Assembly: GCA_024692685.1 (NCBI GenBank)
Contig: JAILMJ010000002.1
Span: forward strand, 2,261 to 66,260
DNA from: Clostridia bacterium
Lineage (GTDB): Bacteria; Bacillota; Clostridia; Oscillospirales; Acutalibacteraceae
DNA length: 64,000 nucleotides
Direction: 5' to 3'
In this document: positions 33,930 through 43,790 of the stretch, in pieces
Position numbering within the stretch: position 1 is the first letter of the stretch
Layout of the letters: the number at the start of each line of letters is the position of its first letter
Position numbers and translations under genes: made by a program
The notes under the pieces: generated by a model
The model's input: only the letters and a program-made list of their open reading frames with translations
Databases searched by the model: none
What the model was told of the DNA's origin: nothing

Positions 33930-33957
33930 AAAACGGAGGTCGTCAGACCTCCGTTTT
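33930..33957. terminator. Bidirectional terminator ending the atp operon and the convergent sugar-redox operon
   Basis: AAAACGGAGGTC-gtca-GACCTCCGTTTT, perfect 12-bp stem. Confidence 0.85.
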
Positions 33958-33972
33958 AAGTTATCGTCATAA

Positions 33973-34521
33973 TCAATATTCAAAGCAAAAATTCTCTATC
34001 AAATCCATCACCTTGGCCTCAACCTTGCCGTAAATCTCTTTACCCAGAGCAATCAGGAATTCGTTGTCATCTCTGTCGCACAGCATGGCATAATTTCTGC
34101 CGATTTCCTCTTCGGTGTTTTCTCCCTTGCGAACGGAGAGATAATAAAAGCTGAACGAGGAACCGTCTGAAATATTTGCAAAAAACCCCGGGGATGTCTG
34201 CTCAATCTTGGCATACATTGCATTAACCGACTGTGTTGAAAGCATGGTATTTGGCAGATATTTGTGAAGGGCAATCTGCGCCGAAAACACCATAAGCGCT
34301 CTCAGCTGGGTAAGCTCGTTGTTGCTCAGCTTTTTTGCTTCGTCCGGGCAAATGATTTCAGGAGTCATATCGGCAAGATGTTCTCCGAGCATACCCGCTT
34401 TTGAAATGTTGCCGTTTGCTCTGTGCTTATCCATTATTCCGGCTAAACTTGTCAGGTCTGAAGCAATCCCGTCTTTTTTCTTTGGGTGAAAGATTTTAAT
34501 ATCGTCATCGTTGTTTCGCAT
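33973..34521 (-). CDS. Hypothetical protein, last gene of the oxidoreductase/TIM-barrel operon
   Basis: 182 aa ORF starting 2 bp after the upstream stop, AAGGA RBS inside the upstream gene. Confidence 0.75.
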   Translation of the reverse strand: MRNNDDDIKIFHPKKKDGIASDLTSLAGIMDKHRANGNISKAGMLGEHLADMTPEIICPDEAKKLSNNELTQLRALMVFSAQIALHKYLPNTMLSTQSVNAMYAKIEQTSPGFFANISDGSSFSFYYLSVRKGENTEEEIGRNYAMLCDRDDNEFLIALGKEIYGKVEAKVMDLIENFCFEY

Positions 34522-34523
34522 AA

Positions 34524-35594
34524 TCAGATAATATCCTTAAATTCAATAACTTTGTTTGTTTTTCCCGATTCAAAAATCGCCTCAACCAGTTTTATAAGTC
34601 TGCGCTGCTGATCATGAGTGACGATGGCGGTCTGTTCGCCTCTGAGGGTGGAATAGATGTTTTTATAGTATTCGCCCCAGTCAGCTTTCTGGACCGGAAG
34701 AGGATATTCCTTTATGGTGTCATCGGTTCTCGGTGCCATTGTCTTCGTTATGCCGGCCCCTGCAACGATAGGAACACATTCTCTGTTCTCCCAGTCGGAA
34801 ACCATTACTGTTTTTCCTTCACAGTCCCAGTTGTTAATAACAGACGAACCGTTTTCACCGAGCATATACCACAGCGGCAGTTCAATGAAATTGCTGGTTG
34901 TTACCTCAACATAAAATGAAAGTCCGTCATCAAAAATAAGTGTTGTTCTGAAGCCGTCGTCGCACTTTTCGTTTGTGACGAAAGTGAGCTCTGCATAGAC
35001 TGTTTTGAGCTTTCGCGGAAGCGTCATCATAAGAGCCTGGTCAAGAAGGTGAATTCCCCAATCGTATACCATACCTCCGCCGTGCTCAGGCTGGTTTCTC
35101 CAATCGCCGGGAACGCCTCTTGAACCCTGAACCCTTGACTCAATCCTGAATACCTTGCCGAGGGTATTGTCGTCAAGGAGCTTTTTCATGGTGAGATAGT
35201 CCTCATCCCAGCGCCTGTTCTGATGTACAGTGAAAAGCTTGCCTGTTTCCTTTGCAACGGCTATCATTTCCTCAAGATCGGAAGAACTGAGGGTAACAGG
35301 CTTTTCGCTGATAACGTTTTTCCCGTGCCTGAGAGCGTCTATAACAATTTCCTTGTGATAATCATTTGGGGTCGCGACGGTTACAAGATCTATCCTTTCA
35401 TCCGACAGAAGTTCTTCACGTGAAGAGAAAACGTGAAGACCGTCGTTTTCGGCTCTTTTTGAGCTGTCAGGGGAGATGTCGTAAATGCCGATTACTTCGG
35501 CGTAATTCTGCATTTCATTACGATTCTTCCTGATATGCCAGCTTCCCATTCCGCCGTATCCTATTACTGCAAAACCGAATTTTCCGTTTACCAT
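34524..35594 (-). CDS. Gfo/Idh/MocA family NAD(P)-dependent oxidoreductase
   Basis: GYGGMG, VATPNDYH, ISEKP, HQNRRWD, GGGMVYDWGIHLLD. Confidence 0.93.
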   Translation of the reverse strand: MVNGKFGFAVIGYGGMGSWHIRKNRNEMQNYAEVIGIYDISPDSSKRAENDGLHVFSSREELLSDERIDLVTVATPNDYHKEIVIDALRHGKNVISEKPVTLSSSDLEEMIAVAKETGKLFTVHQNRRWDEDYLTMKKLLDDNTLGKVFRIESRVQGSRGVPGDWRNQPEHGGGMVYDWGIHLLDQALMMTLPRKLKTVYAELTFVTNEKCDDGFRTTLIFDDGLSFYVEVTTSNFIELPLWYMLGENGSSVINNWDCEGKTVMVSDWENRECVPIVAGAGITKTMAPRTDDTIKEYPLPVQKADWGEYYKNIYSTLRGEQTAIVTHDQQRRLIKLVEAIFESGKTNKVIEFKDII

Positions 35595-35619
35595 TTTTAT
35601 CCTCTTCCTTCGTTGTTTA

Positions 35620-36585
35620 TCAGAACCACCACGCAGCGCCGGTCGGTTCCTTTACAATAACATCTTTAAGGAAAGATACCGCCTTTGAGAGTCCTTCATT
35701 CTGGCTCATAAGGCTGTCCTCATGCTCAATGCTGATTGCATAGTCATAGCCGACCATTCGCAGAGCGGAAATCATATCCTTCCAATAAGAATAATCGTTG
35801 CCGTAGCCGACAGAACGGAAAATCCATGAACGATGTATTTCGTCTCCGTAGGACTTGGTGTCCAGTACTCCGTTAACCGCGGTATTTATTCTGTCAATTT
35901 TAGTGTCTTTTGCGTGGAAATGGAAAACGGCGTCTCCCATTTCGCGTATGCAGGCAACAGGATCCATTCCCTGCCAGATAAGGTGGCTCGGATCAAAATT
36001 TGCGCCTATTTCGGGGCCGACTGCATTCCTGAGTTTAAGCAGCGACTCTGTGTTATAAACACAGAAGCCGGGGTGAAGCTCAAGACCGATTTTATCAACG
36101 CCGTGGTTTCTTGCAAAGGCAACCAGGTCCTTCCAATAGGGGATGAGAACCTCGTTCCACTGCCAGTTAAGCACCTCGGTAAAATCGTCCGGCCAGGGGC
36201 AGACTACCCAGTTCGGATGTTTTGAAGTTTCGCAGTCACCCGGGCAGCCCGAGAAGGTGTTAATGTTATGCAGACCGAGTTTTTCGGCAAGCAGGATGGT
36301 GTTTCTTATTGTTTTGTCATATTCGGCGGCAATTTTTTTATCGGGATGAACCGGGTTTCCGTGGCAGGAAAGAGCACTGATTTCCATGCCGTAGTTTTTG
36401 ACAAGGGCTTTGAAGTCCTCAAGTTTTCCGCTGTCGGAAAGCAGAACTTCAGGGTCGGCATGTGCATTTCCCGGGAAACCGCCGCATCCGATTTCAACCA
36501 TTTCAAGTCCGAGGGATTTGAAATACTTGAGAGCATCCTCAAATGGTACATTTGAAAGTAAAGTTGTAAATACACCGAGTTTCAT
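35620..36585 (-). CDS. Xylose isomerase-like TIM barrel (sugar phosphate isomerase/epimerase family)
   Basis: Metal-ligand motifs LELHPG, NFDPSHL, HFHAKD, IEHED. Confidence 0.9.
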   Translation of the reverse strand: MKLGVFTTLLSNVPFEDALKYFKSLGLEMVEIGCGGFPGNAHADPEVLLSDSGKLEDFKALVKNYGMEISALSCHGNPVHPDKKIAAEYDKTIRNTILLAEKLGLHNINTFSGCPGDCETSKHPNWVVCPWPDDFTEVLNWQWNEVLIPYWKDLVAFARNHGVDKIGLELHPGFCVYNTESLLKLRNAVGPEIGANFDPSHLIWQGMDPVACIREMGDAVFHFHAKDTKIDRINTAVNGVLDTKSYGDEIHRSWIFRSVGYGNDYSYWKDMISALRMVGYDYAISIEHEDSLMSQNEGLSKAVSFLKDVIVKEPTGAAWWF

Positions 36586-36597
36586 TTGTCAGTCTCC

Positions 36598-37332
36598 TCA
36601 GATAATTGATTCAAGGTATTTTAAACTTCTGGCTATGTCGTCAAAGCCGTTCGGAACGGGGTCGTCGTTTTCAACCACAACCCATTCAATATCCAGAGCC
36701 TTGGCAGCCTTTATAACGGCTTTAACATCGCAGTCGCCTTCGCCCAGTGCTTTGGGCTTTCCGTCAACTCCGTCCTTCAGGTGAAGGAGGATTATTTTAT
36801 CGGAGTGCGAAGTGATGAATTTATAGTTGTCGATACCGGCGTGATAACTCCAGTAGGTATCAATTTCAAGATCGCAGTAGCTGGAAATAACTTCAATGGG
36901 CAGACGCTTGTTGCGAAGAGGTTTGAACTCCTCGGTGTGGTTGTGATAATAGGTGGTGATGCCGTAATTCTGCATGGCGTATTCCTTGGCTCTGCCGAGA
37001 ATTTTACCTGTGTGGACACAGTCTGCCATTGTGCCGTGAGGCGCGCCTCCTACTCCTATCGCCTTTGTGCCGAGGGCTTTCTGGAATTTAAGAGTTTCTT
37101 CAAGTTTGTCTTTTTCAAAATCTTCAAGACCGATGTGGCCTCCGACACAGACAAGTCCGGTTTCATCAAGCTTTTTTCTTATTTTTTCCGCACTTGTATT
37201 GAAATAGCCGGCGAATTCAACTCCGTCATATCCGATTTCCTTAACCTTTTCAAGTGCCTTCAGAAGTGTTTTGCTGTCCTTTATCTGGTCTCTGACTGAA
37301 TACATCTGAACTGCAATTTTCATATTATTCAC
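36598..37332 (-). CDS. Xylose isomerase-like TIM barrel (sugar phosphate isomerase/epimerase family)
   Basis: QMYSVRD, GVEFAG, YHNHTEEF, EIDTYW, LHLKD, VVEND. Confidence 0.9.
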   Translation of the reverse strand: MNNMKIAVQMYSVRDQIKDSKTLLKALEKVKEIGYDGVEFAGYFNTSAEKIRKKLDETGLVCVGGHIGLEDFEKDKLEETLKFQKALGTKAIGVGGAPHGTMADCVHTGKILGRAKEYAMQNYGITTYYHNHTEEFKPLRNKRLPIEVISSYCDLEIDTYWSYHAGIDNYKFITSHSDKIILLHLKDGVDGKPKALGEGDCDVKAVIKAAKALDIEWVVVENDDPVPNGFDDIARSLKYLESII

Positions 37333-38425
37333 CTTCGTTAAAATAATACGGTTTGCCGCTTTCGGCAGACTTGTAAATTCCTTCGAGAATCTGGGTTACA
37401 ACCATTGCCTGCTCAGGCTTTGTCGAAACTTCTTTGTTGTTTATGACCGCATCGTAAAAGGCAAGGTTTTCGAGGTCTTCTGCTCTGTCGCTTGCTCCGT
37501 CAAAGAATGCGACGCCGCCGCAGTCAAAGTTGGGCATTTCAATAACCTGGCGGTTGTTCTTAACATAGTTAATCCTGAGTCCGTCAAGCATATCGGCTCC
37601 GCCCTTGTCGCCGCAAACGAGGGTTATTGCCTCTCTGGGATCGGCTATGTTGAGAGCCCAGCTCGATTCAACGCTGACCGTTGCTCCGTTTTCCATAACG
37701 ACAAAGCCAAAGGCGGAATCTTCAACCGTATATTGCTTTGGATCCCAGTCTCCCCAGGCATTTGCAGTGCCGTTTGCCTCGCCGAGTTTCTTGTATTTAG
37801 TGCCGACACAGAATTTGGGCTTGTAGTTATTCATCATCCAGAGGGTGAGATCGAGAGCGTGGGTTCCTATGTCGATGAGAGGACCGCCTCCCTGCTCGTA
37901 TTCATTGAGAAATACGCCCCAGGTGGGTACGGCTCTGCGCCTTAAAGCAATTGCTCTGGCATAGTATATTTCGCCGAGTTCTCCTTTTTCGCAGCAGGCT
38001 TTCAGATACTGCGAATCGCCTCTCCAGCGCGACTGATATCCTATTGAGAGTTTCTTGCCCGTTCTGACGGACGCCTCATACATCGCCTTTGCTTCGGCAT
38101 AGGTCTTCGCCATCGGCTTTTCGCAAAGAACGTGTTTCCCTGCTTCGAGAGAATCTATGGTAATGAACGAATGGGAGCGGTTGGGTGTGCAAACATGGAT
38201 TACCGCAATGTCTTTCTCTTTTTCGAGAAGGTCCTTATAATCAACATAAACTCTTGCGTCTTCAGTGCCGAATTTCTCTTTTGAGTTAACGGCTCTTTCC
38301 TCGATAATATCGCAAAATGCAACAACCTCAACGTTTGGATTTCTTGAAAGCGCAGGCAGATGTTTTCCGTTGGCTATACCGCCGCATCCTATTACGCCGA
38401 CTTTAAGTTTTTCACTCATTTCCAT
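37325..38425 (-). CDS. Gfo/Idh/MocA family NAD(P)-dependent oxidoreductase
   Basis: IGCGGIA, VCTPNRSH, LCEKP, GGGPLIDIGTHALD. Confidence 0.93.
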   Translation of the reverse strand: MEMSEKLKVGVIGCGGIANGKHLPALSRNPNVEVVAFCDIIEERAVNSKEKFGTEDARVYVDYKDLLEKEKDIAVIHVCTPNRSHSFITIDSLEAGKHVLCEKPMAKTYAEAKAMYEASVRTGKKLSIGYQSRWRGDSQYLKACCEKGELGEIYYARAIALRRRAVPTWGVFLNEYEQGGGPLIDIGTHALDLTLWMMNNYKPKFCVGTKYKKLGEANGTANAWGDWDPKQYTVEDSAFGFVVMENGATVSVESSWALNIADPREAITLVCGDKGGADMLDGLRINYVKNNRQVIEMPNFDCGGVAFFDGASDRAEDLENLAFYDAVINNKEVSTKPEQAMVVTQILEGIYKSAESGKPYYFNEGE

Positions 38426-38519
38426 TTTCCCCTTTATTCATTTAGTACTTCGGATACGACTGTTTATGCCTTTGAAATCAGCTCAGATTAAGGCATTTTA
38501 CAACAGTCATATTTATTTT

Positions 38520-38547
38520 ATTATACAATAGAGCGAAATATTTTCAA
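38520..38547 (-). promoter_or_regulatory. SigA-type promoter for the oxidoreductase/TIM-barrel operon
   Basis: Minus strand TTGAAA, 16 bp, TATAAT. Confidence 0.55.
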
Positions 38548-38607
38548 GATTAATTTTAGCAAATTTTACCTGTGTTTTTTTGTTAAAAATATCAATTCAA
38601 AAAACGG

Positions 38608-39420
38608 TTAGCGAAGCCCCTTCGGATTCAGGCTTCCGGTCCTGTATCCGTCAAGGTCAAGCGTCACGAAGTCAAGCCCGAGTCCATGCAGATACGCTGA
38701 AATATTGTTTCGTAAGGCGGTATCGGAAAACCTGTCAAAATCTTCCGGTGCAATCTCTATTCGGGCAATATTTCCGTGAATACGCAAACGCAGCTGACCG
38801 AAACCTTGTTCGCGCAGAAAACGTTCACCCTTCTCCGCTTTTTCAAGTTTATCTTCCGTAATCCTGTCTCCGTAGGGTATTCTTGAAGCGAGGCAGGCGA
38901 GTGACGGCTTGTCTGCAGTATCAAGTCCCATCTCCGCCGAAAGTGCTCTTATTTCGCTTTTTCTTATGCCTAATCTGAGCAGAGGGCTTTCAATTCCGAG
39001 CTCTTCAAGGGCTTTCATTCCGGGTCTGAAATCGCTTATATCATCGAAATTAGTGCCGTCGTATATTACGGATATTCCTTTTTCCTCTGCCTTCTCCCTG
39101 ACTTTTTCAAAGATTGCCTTTTTGCAGTGATAACATCTGTCGTATGGGTTGGCGATAATCTCATCTTTACCCATAACATCAAAGTCAATTATTATCTGCT
39201 CGATGTTTTCCTTTTTGCAAAACTCTGAGGCCCGATCGGCTTCTTCCTGCGGGAAAAATGCCGAACGAACCGTTATCGCAAGCGCCGTGACTCCGGGTAT
39301 ATTACTTGCGGTTTTCAGCAGAAATGTGGAGTCAACGCCGGCGGAATATGCTACGGCAATCTTACCGGCGGAGCTTATGTAATTCTCAAGCAGTTTCTTT
39401 TTATTGTGTAAATCATCCAT
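38608..39420 (-). CDS. larE: ATP-dependent sulfur transferase LarE
   Basis: PP-loop AYSAGVDS, RCYHCK, DGTNFDD, RPGMKA, ACLASRIPYG, GYRTGSLN. Confidence 0.92.
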   Translation of the reverse strand: MDDLHNKKKLLENYISSAGKIAVAYSAGVDSTFLLKTASNIPGVTALAITVRSAFFPQEEADRASEFCKKENIEQIIIDFDVMGKDEIIANPYDRCYHCKKAIFEKVREKAEEKGISVIYDGTNFDDISDFRPGMKALEELGIESPLLRLGIRKSEIRALSAEMGLDTADKPSLACLASRIPYGDRITEDKLEKAEKGERFLREQGFGQLRLRIHGNIARIEIAPEDFDRFSDTALRNNISAYLHGLGLDFVTLDLDGYRTGSLNPKGLR

Positions 39421-39424
39421 TGCT

Positions 39425-40633
39425 TTACCATTTGTCTGCTTTATTGAGCGCTTCTTTTACCTGTGCAAGGCTCATGCCGTTTTCATTGGCAATGCGGGCT
39501 ATGTCGTCATATTCGGGCTTATATTTTACTGAGCCGTAGCCCTCCGAACACTTCACTCTTATCTCGCCGAGATCTGAGCGGAGTGTTTTTATTTCCCTGT
39601 TCAGGACATATCTGTTAAAACCGCTTTCACGTATTCCGATTGTTGTTGTATGCTTAAAAATCAATGAGACGAATTTATCTCTGTCCTCAGCTTTGCATAT
39701 AACTTTTATAAGTGTACCGGGGCGTCCTTTTTTCATATTTATCGGAATTGTATATGCTTCCGGGCAACCGTTTTCAAAGAATTTTTCAACTGCAAACGAT
39801 ATTTCTTCTCCGGTCATATCGTCGACGTTGCAGGAAAGCTCAATTATTTTATCGGTTTTGCCGTTTTCTTCTCCGATAAAGGAACGGACGCAGTTGGCAA
39901 CCGGGAAGTCTTTTTTGCCCATGCCGTAGCCGACGGCATTAACTGTCATAACAGGCATTTCACCGAATTTACTGACGAAATGTTTCAGCAATGCTGCTCC
40001 GGTGGGAGTGCAGAGTTCGCTTTTGATTTCGCCCGAATAAACAGGTATACCTCTGAGAATATCCGCAGTCGCGGGTGCGGGAACGGGAAGAATACCGTGC
40101 GCGCAGATAACCTGACCGCTTCCCGTGCAGACAGGGGAGGCCATGATATAATCCGGAGAGATTTTATTTATCAGCAGGCAGACCGCAGTAATATCTGCAA
40201 CCGCATCTATTGAGCCAACTTCGTGAAAATGGATGTTTTCAATGTCGGTACCGTGTATATTGCTTTCCGCGTGAGCTATCAGGTCATAAACGGATATGAT
40301 GTCATCTTTAATCCTGCTGTCAATATCGAATGAGTTTACAAGCTGTTTTATATACGAAATGCTTGTGTGTTGATGGTAGTGATCATCATCATTATGATGA
40401 TGCCCGTGGGCGTGTATGTTTTCGTCTTCTTCGATTCCTTGCGCAAGAACGGAAAAATGAGTTCCCGTTATGCCGCATTTTACGGCCTTCTCCGCGGAAA
40501 CGCTTGCCATTCCGTCAAACAACGAGTTGATTTCAGAAAGAATATCTTCTTTGTTCGGTATCAATCCAAGAAGCGAAGCAGCTAGCATATCTCCTGCCGC
40601 ACCCATACTGCAGTCAAGGTAAAGTATACTCAT
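39425..40633 (-). CDS. larC: Nickel insertion protein LarC (single ORF)
   Basis: LDCSMGAAGDM, His-rich HAHGHHHNDDDHYHQH, IHFHEVG, PVPAPAT, TPTGAA, MKKGRPG, KPEYDD. Confidence 0.93.
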   Translation of the reverse strand: MSILYLDCSMGAAGDMLAASLLGLIPNKEDILSEINSLFDGMASVSAEKAVKCGITGTHFSVLAQGIEEDENIHAHGHHHNDDDHYHQHTSISYIKQLVNSFDIDSRIKDDIISVYDLIAHAESNIHGTDIENIHFHEVGSIDAVADITAVCLLINKISPDYIMASPVCTGSGQVICAHGILPVPAPATADILRGIPVYSGEIKSELCTPTGAALLKHFVSKFGEMPVMTVNAVGYGMGKKDFPVANCVRSFIGEENGKTDKIIELSCNVDDMTGEEISFAVEKFFENGCPEAYTIPINMKKGRPGTLIKVICKAEDRDKFVSLIFKHTTTIGIRESGFNRYVLNREIKTLRSDLGEIRVKCSEGYGSVKYKPEYDDIARIANENGMSLAQVKEALNKADKW

Positions 40634-41385
40634 TTTCGTCCCTCCGTGTGATTGATTTTTGAAGCAAGAAAAGCGGCACCGAAGCCGTTGTCTATATTGA
40701 CGACACCGATTCCCGCTGAACAGGAATTGAGCATTGATAAAAGTGCGGTAACGCCTTCAAAGGCGGAGCCGTAACCTACTGAAGTGGGAACGGCTATTAC
40801 AGGGCAATGGGCAAGCCCGCCGACAACGCCGGCAAGAGCTCCCTCCATACCGGCAATTACAATTATTACCGATGCTGTCATTATTTCATCAATATGTGAA
40901 AAAAGACGGTGAATTCCGGCTACGCCGACATCGCAGATAAGAGTTGTCTCATTTCCGAGAGCTTTTGCCGTAATCTCCGCCTCATCTGCAACGGGAAGGT
41001 CGCCCGTTCCTCCGGTAAGGATAAGAATCTTACCGTTCCCGTCTGCTTCCGGGAAAGTGCCTGTCATTCCGATTTTCCCTTCGGCAAAATATGTAAAGGC
41101 CGTCTTTTCTTTTATTTCTGCTGCTTTTTCAGGTGAAAGCCTTGTGACAAGGATGTTATTCTGGCCGTTTGCTTTCATTGTCTCGGCTATCTGAATGATT
41201 TGTCCGGCGGTTTTGCATTCTCCGTATATCACTTCAGCGACTCCCTGACGGAGTTCCCTGTGGGAGTCGATTTTCGCGAAATCAATATCAGTATAGGGAG
41301 CTGTTTTTAATTTTAAAAGCGCTTCATCGACGGATATTTCTCCCGTTTTGATTTTCCCCAGTAACTCTTTTGTTTTATCTTTCAT
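40630..41385 (-). CDS. larB: Nickel pincer cofactor biosynthesis protein LarB
   Basis: EVIYGECKT, DVGVAGIHRL, AGMEGAL, AVPTSVGYG, VVNIDNGFGAA. Confidence 0.94.
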   Translation of the reverse strand: MKDKTKELLGKIKTGEISVDEALLKLKTAPYTDIDFAKIDSHRELRQGVAEVIYGECKTAGQIIQIAETMKANGQNNILVTRLSPEKAAEIKEKTAFTYFAEGKIGMTGTFPEADGNGKILILTGGTGDLPVADEAEITAKALGNETTLICDVGVAGIHRLFSHIDEIMTASVIIVIAGMEGALAGVVGGLAHCPVIAVPTSVGYGSAFEGVTALLSMLNSCSAGIGVVNIDNGFGAAFLASKINHTEGRK

Positions 41386-41449: not shown

Positions 41450-41752
41450 TTATTTGTCTTTCCTGAGCACCTTTTTGGGATCCTTTATGAGCAGGATTGC
41501 AATCCAGATTACCAGAGCAAGTGCTATAACGGAAAGCCCGAGGAATGTATCGTTGAGCATATCTTCCGGAGCGGGAGTGAAATACGCAGCTTTAAGCTCC
41601 GCATATTCAAACACGGCATCGACAAACCACATAAGAGACGCACCCCAGAACATAAAGCAAAGAGTGCTGACCTTAAACTTATCGTCCGGAGCATTCTTAT
41701 ACCAGATTACAGTGCATACAGCAGCCGCAATAACAGTAATAAGTAAAGTCAT
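41450..41752 (-). CDS. Small 3-TM membrane protein, unknown function
   Basis: 100 aa, three hydrophobic segments, FWGASLMWFVD and DMLND motifs. Confidence 0.8.
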   Translation of the reverse strand: MTLLITVIAAAVCTVIWYKNAPDDKFKVSTLCFMFWGASLMWFVDAVFEYAELKAAYFTPAPEDMLNDTFLGLSVIALALVIWIAILLIKDPKKVLRKDK

Positions 41753-41754
41753 TA

Positions 41755-42165
41755 TTATTTCTCCCTTGCACGTTTGGAAGCAGCGTTCTTTTTTTCAACT
41801 GCCGTAGATACAGCAACCATAATAATCCAGGCAACAGTTACAACAATTGCCATTGTTACGCCGACTGTGGCCATTTCGTGAAGCATCTCCGATTTCGCAA
41901 CGGGATCTCCTGCTGCGGTAAGAAACGGGAACCACGGGACTATTTCACCGTGCCAGAGATGTTCAAAGGTGAGAAGTATGCAACCGCCCCAAAGCAGATT
42001 GCGGAGCCATTTAAGCTTTGATACAAAGCCGGTTTTTGAAACCTGCTCTGTTTTTTCTTCTCCCGCGGGAAGTTTGACCTGAGCAGATGAGTTCTTCTTT
42101 TCAAGTGCTTTTTCTGCAACTGTTACAACAATTGCTTCAGCAGCCGGTACTATAAAACATGCCAT
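41755..42165 (-). CDS. Small 3-TM membrane protein, unknown function, paralog of the adjacent gene
   Basis: 136 aa, MACF N-terminus, LWGGCILLTFEHLWHGE and EMLHE motifs; GGAGG RBS. Confidence 0.82.
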   Translation of the reverse strand: MACFIVPAAEAIVVTVAEKALEKKNSSAQVKLPAGEEKTEQVSKTGFVSKLKWLRNLLWGGCILLTFEHLWHGEIVPWFPFLTAAGDPVAKSEMLHEMATVGVTMAIVVTVAWIIMVAVSTAVEKKNAASKRAREK

Positions 42166-42191: not shown

Positions 42192-42749
42192 TTATTTTTG
42201 GTAAATAAATTCGACGTCGCTGTCTTTGAGCAGCGGTGCATTTTTATCCTTTTCGGATAAAACGGGGGACTGCGTTTCCCAGTCTATACCGAAAGCAGGG
42301 TCATCAAAGCGTATGCTTCTGTCATCTTCACGTGAATAGAGAGCGTCAACCTTATAGGATAACTCAACATTATCACTGAGAGCAACAAAACCATGAAGGC
42401 AGCCCTTCGGTATATAGAGCATTTTTTTGTTGTCACCGGAAAGCTCAACTTTGACAGTTTTCATATAAGTAGGGGAGCCTTTCCGTATGTCGACGGCTAC
42501 ATCCGCTATTGTTCCGCGTGTGCAAGAAACGAGCTTTGACTGGGCACTGGGTTCTTTCTGGCAGTGAAGACCTCTGAGAGTTCCTTTCTTGGCCGAAAAG
42601 GAGCGGTTGTCCTGAACAAAGATATCGTTTATCCCAAGCTTTGAAAAAGCGGCCGATGAATAGCTTTCATAGAACCATCCTCGGTTATCTCCGAAGACAT
42701 CGGGCTCAATAATGAAAACGCCGTCAATCTCCGTTTTTTTAATCGTCAT
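42192..42749 (-). CDS. rfbC: dTDP-4-dehydrorhamnose 3,5-epimerase
   Basis: [35 protein letters not shown]; start reassigned to ATG 42749. Confidence 0.94.
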
Positions 42750-43680
42750 GATATACTCCGTCCTCCGTGCCCCAGACAGGTTGTTCGTCCGGCTTGTCGG
42801 TTGAGTAAAGGATTTTTCCCTCAGCAACAGCCATAAGGTGCTGACCATAGGAAGACTTGCCGTATTTGTTGGCGGAATGAATGAGAGCGTCCTTGCTTAT
42901 CCATCTCATATTGTAAGCAATTTCTTCGGGAGCGGAAATCTGAATGCCCTGAAGCCGCTCAATAGTCCTGATGAAGTTTGAGGCGTCAATTAGATTGTCG
43001 ACTGTTCCCGTGTCAAGCCAGGCATAGCCTCTGCCCAAAAGCTTGACGTCCAGGTCGCCCGCATCAAGATACAGCTGGTTTATATCGGTTATCTCAAGTT
43101 CTCCTCTCTTTGAGGGCTTGAGTGATTTCGCGAAATCCACTATGCGGTTATCATAGAAGTACAGACCGGTAACGGCATAATTTGATTTCGGAACCGCAGG
43201 TTTCTCTTCTATGGAAATAGGCATGCCGTTTTCGTCAAATTCAACAACGCCGAAAGATTGGGGATTTTCGACATAATATCCGAAAATAGTGGCTCTGCCT
43301 TCCTTTTTCGCTGCCTGACGGAGAATGTGACCCAGGCCGCTGCCGTAGAAGATATTGTCCCCGAGCACCATGGCAACACTGTCATTTCCGATGAAATCCT
43401 CGCCTATAAGAAAGGCCTGAGCCAGACCGTCAGGGCTTTCCTGAACGGCATAACTCAAATGAAGGCCAAACTGGGAACCGTCGCCCAGAAGAGTCTCAAA
43501 TTTCGGAGTGTCAGAAGGGGTTGATATGATTAAAATATCCCTGATTCCCGCCAGCATAAGAGTTGACAGAGGATAATAAATCATCGGCTTGTCATAAACC
43601 GGAAGAAGCTGCTTACTGGTTACAAGTGTTAACGGGTAAAGCCTCGTGCCGGAACCGCCGGCAAGGATAATACCTTTCAT
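42739..43680 (-). CDS. rfbA: Glucose-1-phosphate thymidylyltransferase
   Basis: [49 protein letters not shown]. Confidence 0.97.
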
Positions 43681-43790
43681 TTGAGCACTTCCTTGTAAGT
43701 CGTTAAATCACCACTTAATTTTATCATTGTTTAACATAATTGTCAAACCTTATTTATGTGTATTGCGCCGATTCGAAAAAGGCACAGATA

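Follow-up and report, generated by a model that had tools for sequence, protein, structure and literature searches.

The stretch of DNA analysed here, referred to below as the window, covers 64 kb (C6:2261-66260) of assembly G000, a metagenome-assembled genome (MAG) of 2.27 Mb in 118 contigs that is 91% complete, has an estimated contamination of 3.35% and comes from an Oscillospirales bacterium of gut or rumen that has not been cultured. The larB-larC-larE operon on the minus strand of the window is ordinary and appears intact; it is an already known system for synthesis of the cofactor nickel-pincer nucleotide (NPN). The first gene, larB (41385..40630), encodes 251 amino acids (aa) that match the LarB equivalog model NF033503 (273 bits, cut-off 175, profile positions 1-208 of 209) and Pfam AIRC, a PurE-like AIRC fold (61 bits), and is predicted to be the nicotinic acid adenine dinucleotide carboxylase/hydrolase of the first step of NPN synthesis. 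The second, larC (40633..39425, 402 aa), is predicted to encode the CTP-dependent nickel insertase; it matches Pfam Ni_insertion PF01969 (446 bits, profile positions 1-374 of 375) and contains both halves of the protein, LarC1 (TIGR00299, 200 bits, cut-off 90) and LarC2 (NF052512, 137 bits, cut-off 50), in a single open reading frame (ORF) without a frameshift. The third, larE (39420..38608, 270 aa), matches TIGR00268 (301 bits, cut-off 150), and its product is predicted to be an ATP-dependent sulfur insertase. Three full-length matches to curated equivalog models place the identity of these genes far above chance, and the contiguity of larB, larC and larE given in the initial annotation was confirmed. 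With a 4-bp overlap of larB with larC and 4 nt between larC and larE, the three genes look translationally coupled. An Rfam scan of the window at gathering thresholds gave no match, for example to a NiCo riboswitch near the lar genes.

The PP-loop of LarE reads SAGVDS (residues 26-31, S26-S31), a variant of SGGxDS, and the protein has a CxxC-C motif formed by C96-x-x-C99 and C176. In LarE of Thermotoga maritima this motif binds a [4Fe-4S] cluster, which makes the enzyme catalytic instead of sacrificial (Chatterjee et al. 2022, PMC9283937). Judged by the motif, the window LarE is probably of the [4Fe-4S] catalytic type as well, and the NCBIfam name 'sacrificial sulfur transferase' probably does not apply to it. 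Following the established biochemistry of Lar proteins, LarB would convert nicotinic acid adenine dinucleotide to pyridinium-3,5-biscarboxylate mononucleotide, LarE would turn both carboxylates into thiocarboxylates, and LarC would insert nickel to give NPN.

The window itself contains no LarA-family gene, as the initial annotation had stated; a search of the whole assembly with the Lar_N profile matched only another contig, C59. This single match in the genome is an ORF of 422 aa on the minus strand (C59:11512-12780), which scored 57.1 bits against a Pfam gathering score of 23.3. The same protein matched NF052594, 'nickel-dependent putative hexonate epimerase' (NPN_18_hexonate; LarA homologue group 18, LarAH18), over its full length with 640.3 bits, at a cut-off of 500 and over profile positions 4-410 of 411. 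No second LarA paralogue was found in G000, either by Pfam search or by a lenient tblastn. The best relative with a solved structure is 4NAR (E 1e-34, aligned residues 19-372), which Desguin et al. 2020 (PMC7583248) give as the NPN-dependent D-gluconate 2-epimerase GntE2/LarAH20 of T. maritima.

In HMMER alignments with LarA (2YJG) and GntE2 (4NAR), residues D44/R47, H78, H156, K166 and H182 of the C59 protein fall in line with their counterparts; they make up the motifs DxTR (D44, R47), GTH/GxH (H78), PH (H156) and K-x16-H (K166, H182). Going by the roles assigned in published work on LarA, these would be the NPN-tethering lysine, the nickel-ligand histidine, the two catalytic histidines and the phosphate-binding aspartate and arginine. 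NPN-binding residues are kept in all LarAH groups that were analysed, and all characterised LarA homologues need NPN (PMC7583248). In the same study groups 18, 19 and 20 were placed together by shared signatures, and group 18 was predicted to be a hexonate epimerase. The C59 protein is accordingly annotated here as a putative group-18 hexonate epimerase of the LarA superfamily and not as a lactate racemase. With a clear homologue on C59, the larBCE cluster is no orphan. Of the two options that the initial annotation had left, a client encoded elsewhere or a non-LarA enzyme, the first was borne out and the second was not.

Downstream of the LarAH18 gene, C59 encodes a PHP-family phosphatase, an NADP-dependent 6-phosphogluconate dehydrogenase (gnd; TIGR00873, 778 bits), a PfkB sugar-acid kinase and a GH130 enzyme. 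The LarAH18-PHP-gnd-PfkB block is kept in four relatives, three of the same genus and one of another family (G016, G008, G002 and G034). We then counted the neighbours within 10 kb of 80 LarAH18 loci, each from a different species; these are MAGs of Oscillospirales from gut and rumen that bear the label Acutalibacteraceae, Ruminococcaceae, Oscillospiraceae or Faecousia. A gnd gene was present at 64 of the 80 loci, a PfkB gene at 54 and a PHP gene at 52; in the same number of species (52/80) the PHP phosphatase gene follows LarAH18 immediately. The nearest models to the PHP phosphatase on C59 (L002 7647-8528, minus strand) are the 3',5'-nucleoside bisphosphate phosphatase and RNase RNM, both matched below their cut-offs. 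None of larB, larC and larE was found within 10 kb at any of the 80 loci (0/80), from which it follows that encoding lar apart from LarAH18 is the norm of this clade and no anomaly.

The conserved neighbourhood of gnd and PfkB is consistent with the hexonate-epimerase prediction for group 18. In the pathway that we propose, NPN would be used by the LarAH18 enzyme (G000:C59:11512-12780(-)) to turn a D-mannonate-like hexonate into its C2 epimer, D-gluconate; the PfkB kinase would phosphorylate D-gluconate, and Gnd would pass 6-phosphogluconate on to ribulose-5-phosphate and the pentose-phosphate pathway. Such a pathway would fit the route proposed for T. maritima GntE/GntE2, which leads from hexonate through D-gluconate and 6-phosphogluconate to ribulose-5-phosphate.

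Among 25 genomes of the genus, LarAH18 was found in 9, LarC in 6 and LarB in 4, and 5 of the 6 genomes with LarC also have LarAH18 (Fisher one-sided p=0.012). We infer, with a probability of roughly 85%, that LarAH18 on C59 is the client of the larBCE cluster in the window, which would supply it with NPN, and that the sugar cassette next to larE is independent of both.

A number of observations weigh against this reading. The Lar_N score of the C59 protein is modest (57 bits). The Pfam model LarA_C (PF21113) was not detected in it in the genome search at E<=0.01; PF21113 also found no match in the control genome of T. maritima, which encodes GntE2, so that the model evidently does not cover LarAH groups 18-20, and NF052594 does cover the C-terminal half of the C59 protein. 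No LarAH group 18 enzyme has been characterised biochemically, and the substrate is a prediction. A whole-genome search of the 91%-complete G000 assembly found no CbiM-type nickel/cobalt transporter. Five relatives (G002, G003, G005, G008 and G034, 89-97% complete) have LarAH18 without LarC. Finally, G018, which is 100% complete by marker genes, has larBCE behind the gene of a small membrane protein and no LarA homologue.

This last arrangement recalls the genes upstream of larB in the window. A small membrane protein of 100 aa is encoded at 41450..41752 (minus strand), 64 bp upstream of larB, and another of 136 aa at 41755..42165 (minus strand), 2 bp upstream of the former; neither has a Pfam or NCBIfam match. 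The two are only weakly similar (E 0.1), and the idea that they are paralogues was rejected; they would be very distant paralogues at best. The homologue of the 100-aa protein in G018 is 69% identical and lies directly upstream of larB. Homologues with 59-71% identity occur within about 1.1 kb of lar genes in G018 and of larC in G014 and G009; among the genomes without lar, G002 alone has one, a stop-containing remnant. The 100-aa protein is therefore a candidate for a lar-associated membrane component, with nickel uptake as one possible function, and larBCE may be co-transcribed with the two small membrane-protein genes. In G006 a fused CbiM-PDGLE (cbiMN-like) gene directly follows larC (L007 2563-3645). 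Just upstream of the membrane-protein genes of the window are rmlC (dTDP-4-dehydrorhamnose 3,5-epimerase) and rmlA (glucose-1-phosphate thymidylyltransferase) at 42192-43680 on the minus strand, and rmlA, rmlC, the two membrane-protein genes and lar form a run on one strand with short gaps. A strong promoter-like site is located ahead of rmlA/rmlC (43746..43718), and the annotated genes nearby include neither rmlB nor rmlD.

Could the membrane-protein-larBCE genes of this genus supply NPN to a client outside the LarA family, so that G000 would perhaps hold a second, unrecognised client beside LarAH18? About 15% of the genomes that contain lar reportedly lack a LarA homologue (PMC11796402), and six genomes of this order (G018, G025, G029, G030, G033 and G037) have LarC and no Lar_N match over the cut-off. 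Among these, G033 is a single-contig and apparently closed genome with larB and larC and no LarA homologue, and G018 is also without a Lar_N or DUF362 protein and without the LarAH18 block. DUF362, the sister family of LarA, was considered as NPN client and rejected: it is often met in genomes without lar, G018 has none of it, and its distribution does not follow that of lar; the weak Lar_N matches in G033, G037, G005 and G040 are DUF362 proteins. Because the lar genes often stand on contigs of 4-7 kb in these MAGs, some of the absences may be binning losses. We consider this reading quite unlikely.

The nearest enzymes that could be thought of as such a client, also or instead of LarAH18, are those of the sugar cassette downstream of larE (33973-38425, minus strand), and the initial annotation had raised a speculative link to them. 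It had correctly placed this cassette as the next genes on the same strand, 182 bp away (gap 38426..38607); the gap contains a promoter-like site, TTGAAA-16-TATAAT at 38547..38520 on the minus strand, which is a strong sigma-70-like match (11/12). The first cassette gene, GFO1 (37325..38425), lies outside the lar system and encodes a DgpA-like glycoside 3-oxidoreductase of the Gfo/Idh/MocA (GFO) family. DgpA is the NAD-dependent glycoside 3-oxidoreductase of C-glycoside cleavage in gut bacteria. GFO1 is followed by genes for two xylose-isomerase-like TIM barrels recognised by Pfam and PDB matches, TIM1 (36598-37332) and TIM2 (35620-36585), a second GFO oxidoreductase recognised by Pfam, GFO2 (34524-35594), and as last gene a 182-aa protein without an assigned family (33973-34521), after which comes a strong terminator-like hairpin (33957..33930); all are on the minus strand. 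The GFO1 protein matches DgpA1 (PDB 9M3D) over its full length (E 3e-129, residues 5-360) and DgpA (7XR9) with E 2e-116, and the TIM barrels match 8RO4, a 2-hydroxy-3-keto-glucal hydratase, and the sugar isomerase/lyase-type structures 8BVK and 8TCS/8TCD.

From these likenesses the cassette is probably an NAD-dependent operon for 3-keto-glycoside cleavage in an Oscillospirales bacterium of gut or rumen; its predicted chemistry is complete and of a known type (oxidation at C3, elimination, hydration, reduction), in which NPN would not be needed; the TIM barrels resemble metal-dependent lyases and hydratases. Each of the 25 genus genomes has the TIM-barrel marker of the cassette, at 78-87% identity and on contigs other than those with lar; 19 of the 25 have no LarC. 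The cassette stays together as a unit, with other flanks and no lar, in the three relatives that were read (G001, G018 and G008, the last of them lar-negative).

Synteny at many loci of relatives was read from ORF lists and Pfam, and the junction of larE and GFO1 was searched for by a metagenome scan with LarE. Outside the window it was found only in a 99%-identical contig of the same species; neither the five other lar-positive members of the genus nor 16 LarE loci that are more distant (most on short contigs, several with 10-kb flanks) have it. In G018 the lar locus runs membrane protein-larB-larC-larE and then a NERD nuclease, in G006 larB-larC-cbiMN, in G016 larB-larC followed by a convergent ATP-binding cassette (ABC) transporter, and in G009 larC adjoins an energy-coupling factor (ECF) S-component. 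A functional link between lar and the cassette was rejected, as the marker belongs to the core of the genus (25/25), where most genomes have it without lar, and as the adjacency is limited to this species. The cassette seems to possess a promoter of its own, and its place beside lar appears coincidental. Both a larA homologue elsewhere in the genome and an adjacency that is not conserved were thus found, with the caveat that the homologue is of the hexonate-epimerase type and not a lactate racemase.

In two other species (L074 12379-16275 and L079 9783-13678) the DgpA-like cassette and the LarAH18 operon converge, with 1-3 kb between them. These are the only hint of a cassette in an NPN neighbourhood outside this species, and they are probably due to chance: the gene of ATP synthase beta, taken as a control without any relation to the system, gave the same rate (2/80), and the association of cassette and LarAH18 was accordingly treated as chance and not as recurrent. 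That NPN serves an enzyme outside the LarA family, possibly one of the adjacent cassette, would draw on these two loci, on the junction in the window and on the relatives with LarC and no Lar_N match; set against the LarA homologue in G000, the spread of the cassette through lar-less genomes and the closeness of GFO1 to an NAD-dependent enzyme, we hold it to be quite improbable.

A different explanation would be that lar and LarAH18 are functionally uncoupled, either because LarAH18 works independently of NPN or because lar is a decaying accessory island without a current client. It could account for the five LarAH18-positive relatives in which no LarC was detectable and for the stop-containing remnant of the lar-associated membrane protein in G002. 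The lar content also varies in the genus, with larC present in G009 and G014 and larB not over the cut-off in either. Yet the three lar ORFs of the window are full-length, intact and closely spaced, residues aligned with the lysine and histidine NPN ligands of LarA are retained in LarAH18, every characterised LarA homologue requires NPN (PMC7583248), and lar and LarAH18 are positively and significantly associated in the genus. Uncoupling is therefore very unlikely in our view.

That C59 is a binning contaminant and the organism of the window truly without a LarA homologue is hardly credible: the MAG is fragmented, with some estimated contamination, and the GC content of C59 is slightly above that of C6 (0.481 versus 0.458), but the tetranucleotide correlation of the two contigs (0.961) is close to the median among large contigs (0.968), the C59 genes are about 76-90% identical to those of genus relatives, the same distance as the window genes, and the LarAH18 operon is present in eight other members of the genus. 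As far as can be told, C59 comes from the same organism as the window.

With LarAH18 as the preferred client, the window is of little importance in itself, being a standard NPN operon with its client on another contig, as is the rule for the clade. The larBCE cluster and the LarAH18-gnd-PfkB block do offer a concrete pairing for assigning the substrate of group 18 in gut and rumen Oscillospirales. A residual puzzle is that some relatives have lar without LarA and others LarAH18 without lar. Allowing for possible binning loss, these mismatched relatives are better candidates than the window for non-LarA NPN clients or for cross-feeding of NPN, and close relatives with lar and no LarA can be used in the hunt for the long-postulated NPN enzymes outside the LarA family; G000 is not such a case.

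Compared with known systems, the cluster shares LarB, LarC and LarE with the lar locus of Lactiplantibacillus plantarum (larA-larB-larC-larD-larE, larR and lar(MN)QO). In contrast to that locus, it lacks larA, and larD, larR and lar(MN)QO are missing from its surroundings, its LarC is a single ORF without a frameshift, its LarE has a CxxC-C motif in place of a single sacrificial cysteine, and the putative client in G000 is of the hexonate-epimerase type and not a lactate racemase. Closer to the C59 protein is T. maritima GntE2 (LarAH20, 4NAR), with which it shares the PHE(V/S) loop and the W signature of groups 18-20 (PMC7583248); both are genomically linked to a 6-phosphogluconate dehydrogenase and a sugar-acid kinase. 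The two differ in group (18 for the C59 protein, 20 for GntE2), and the T. maritima control stayed below the NF052594 cut-off; the kinase in the C59 block is PfkB-type, and a PHP phosphatase is conserved in blocks of the C59 type. Within LarAH group 18/NF052594, a family whose function is only predicted (PMC7583248), the C59 protein is a full-length member with nothing to set it apart. The neighbouring cassette, for its part, resembles the DgpA/DgpB/DgpC and related 3-keto-glycoside cleavage pathways known from gut and soil bacteria (7XR9, 9M3D, 8RO4, 8TCD/8TCS) in its first gene, a close DgpA homologue, and in its two xylose-isomerase-like TIM barrels and second GFO oxidoreductase, whereas the kinship of its TIM barrels to the lyases and hydratases of solved structure is distant (E 1e-8 to 1e-21).

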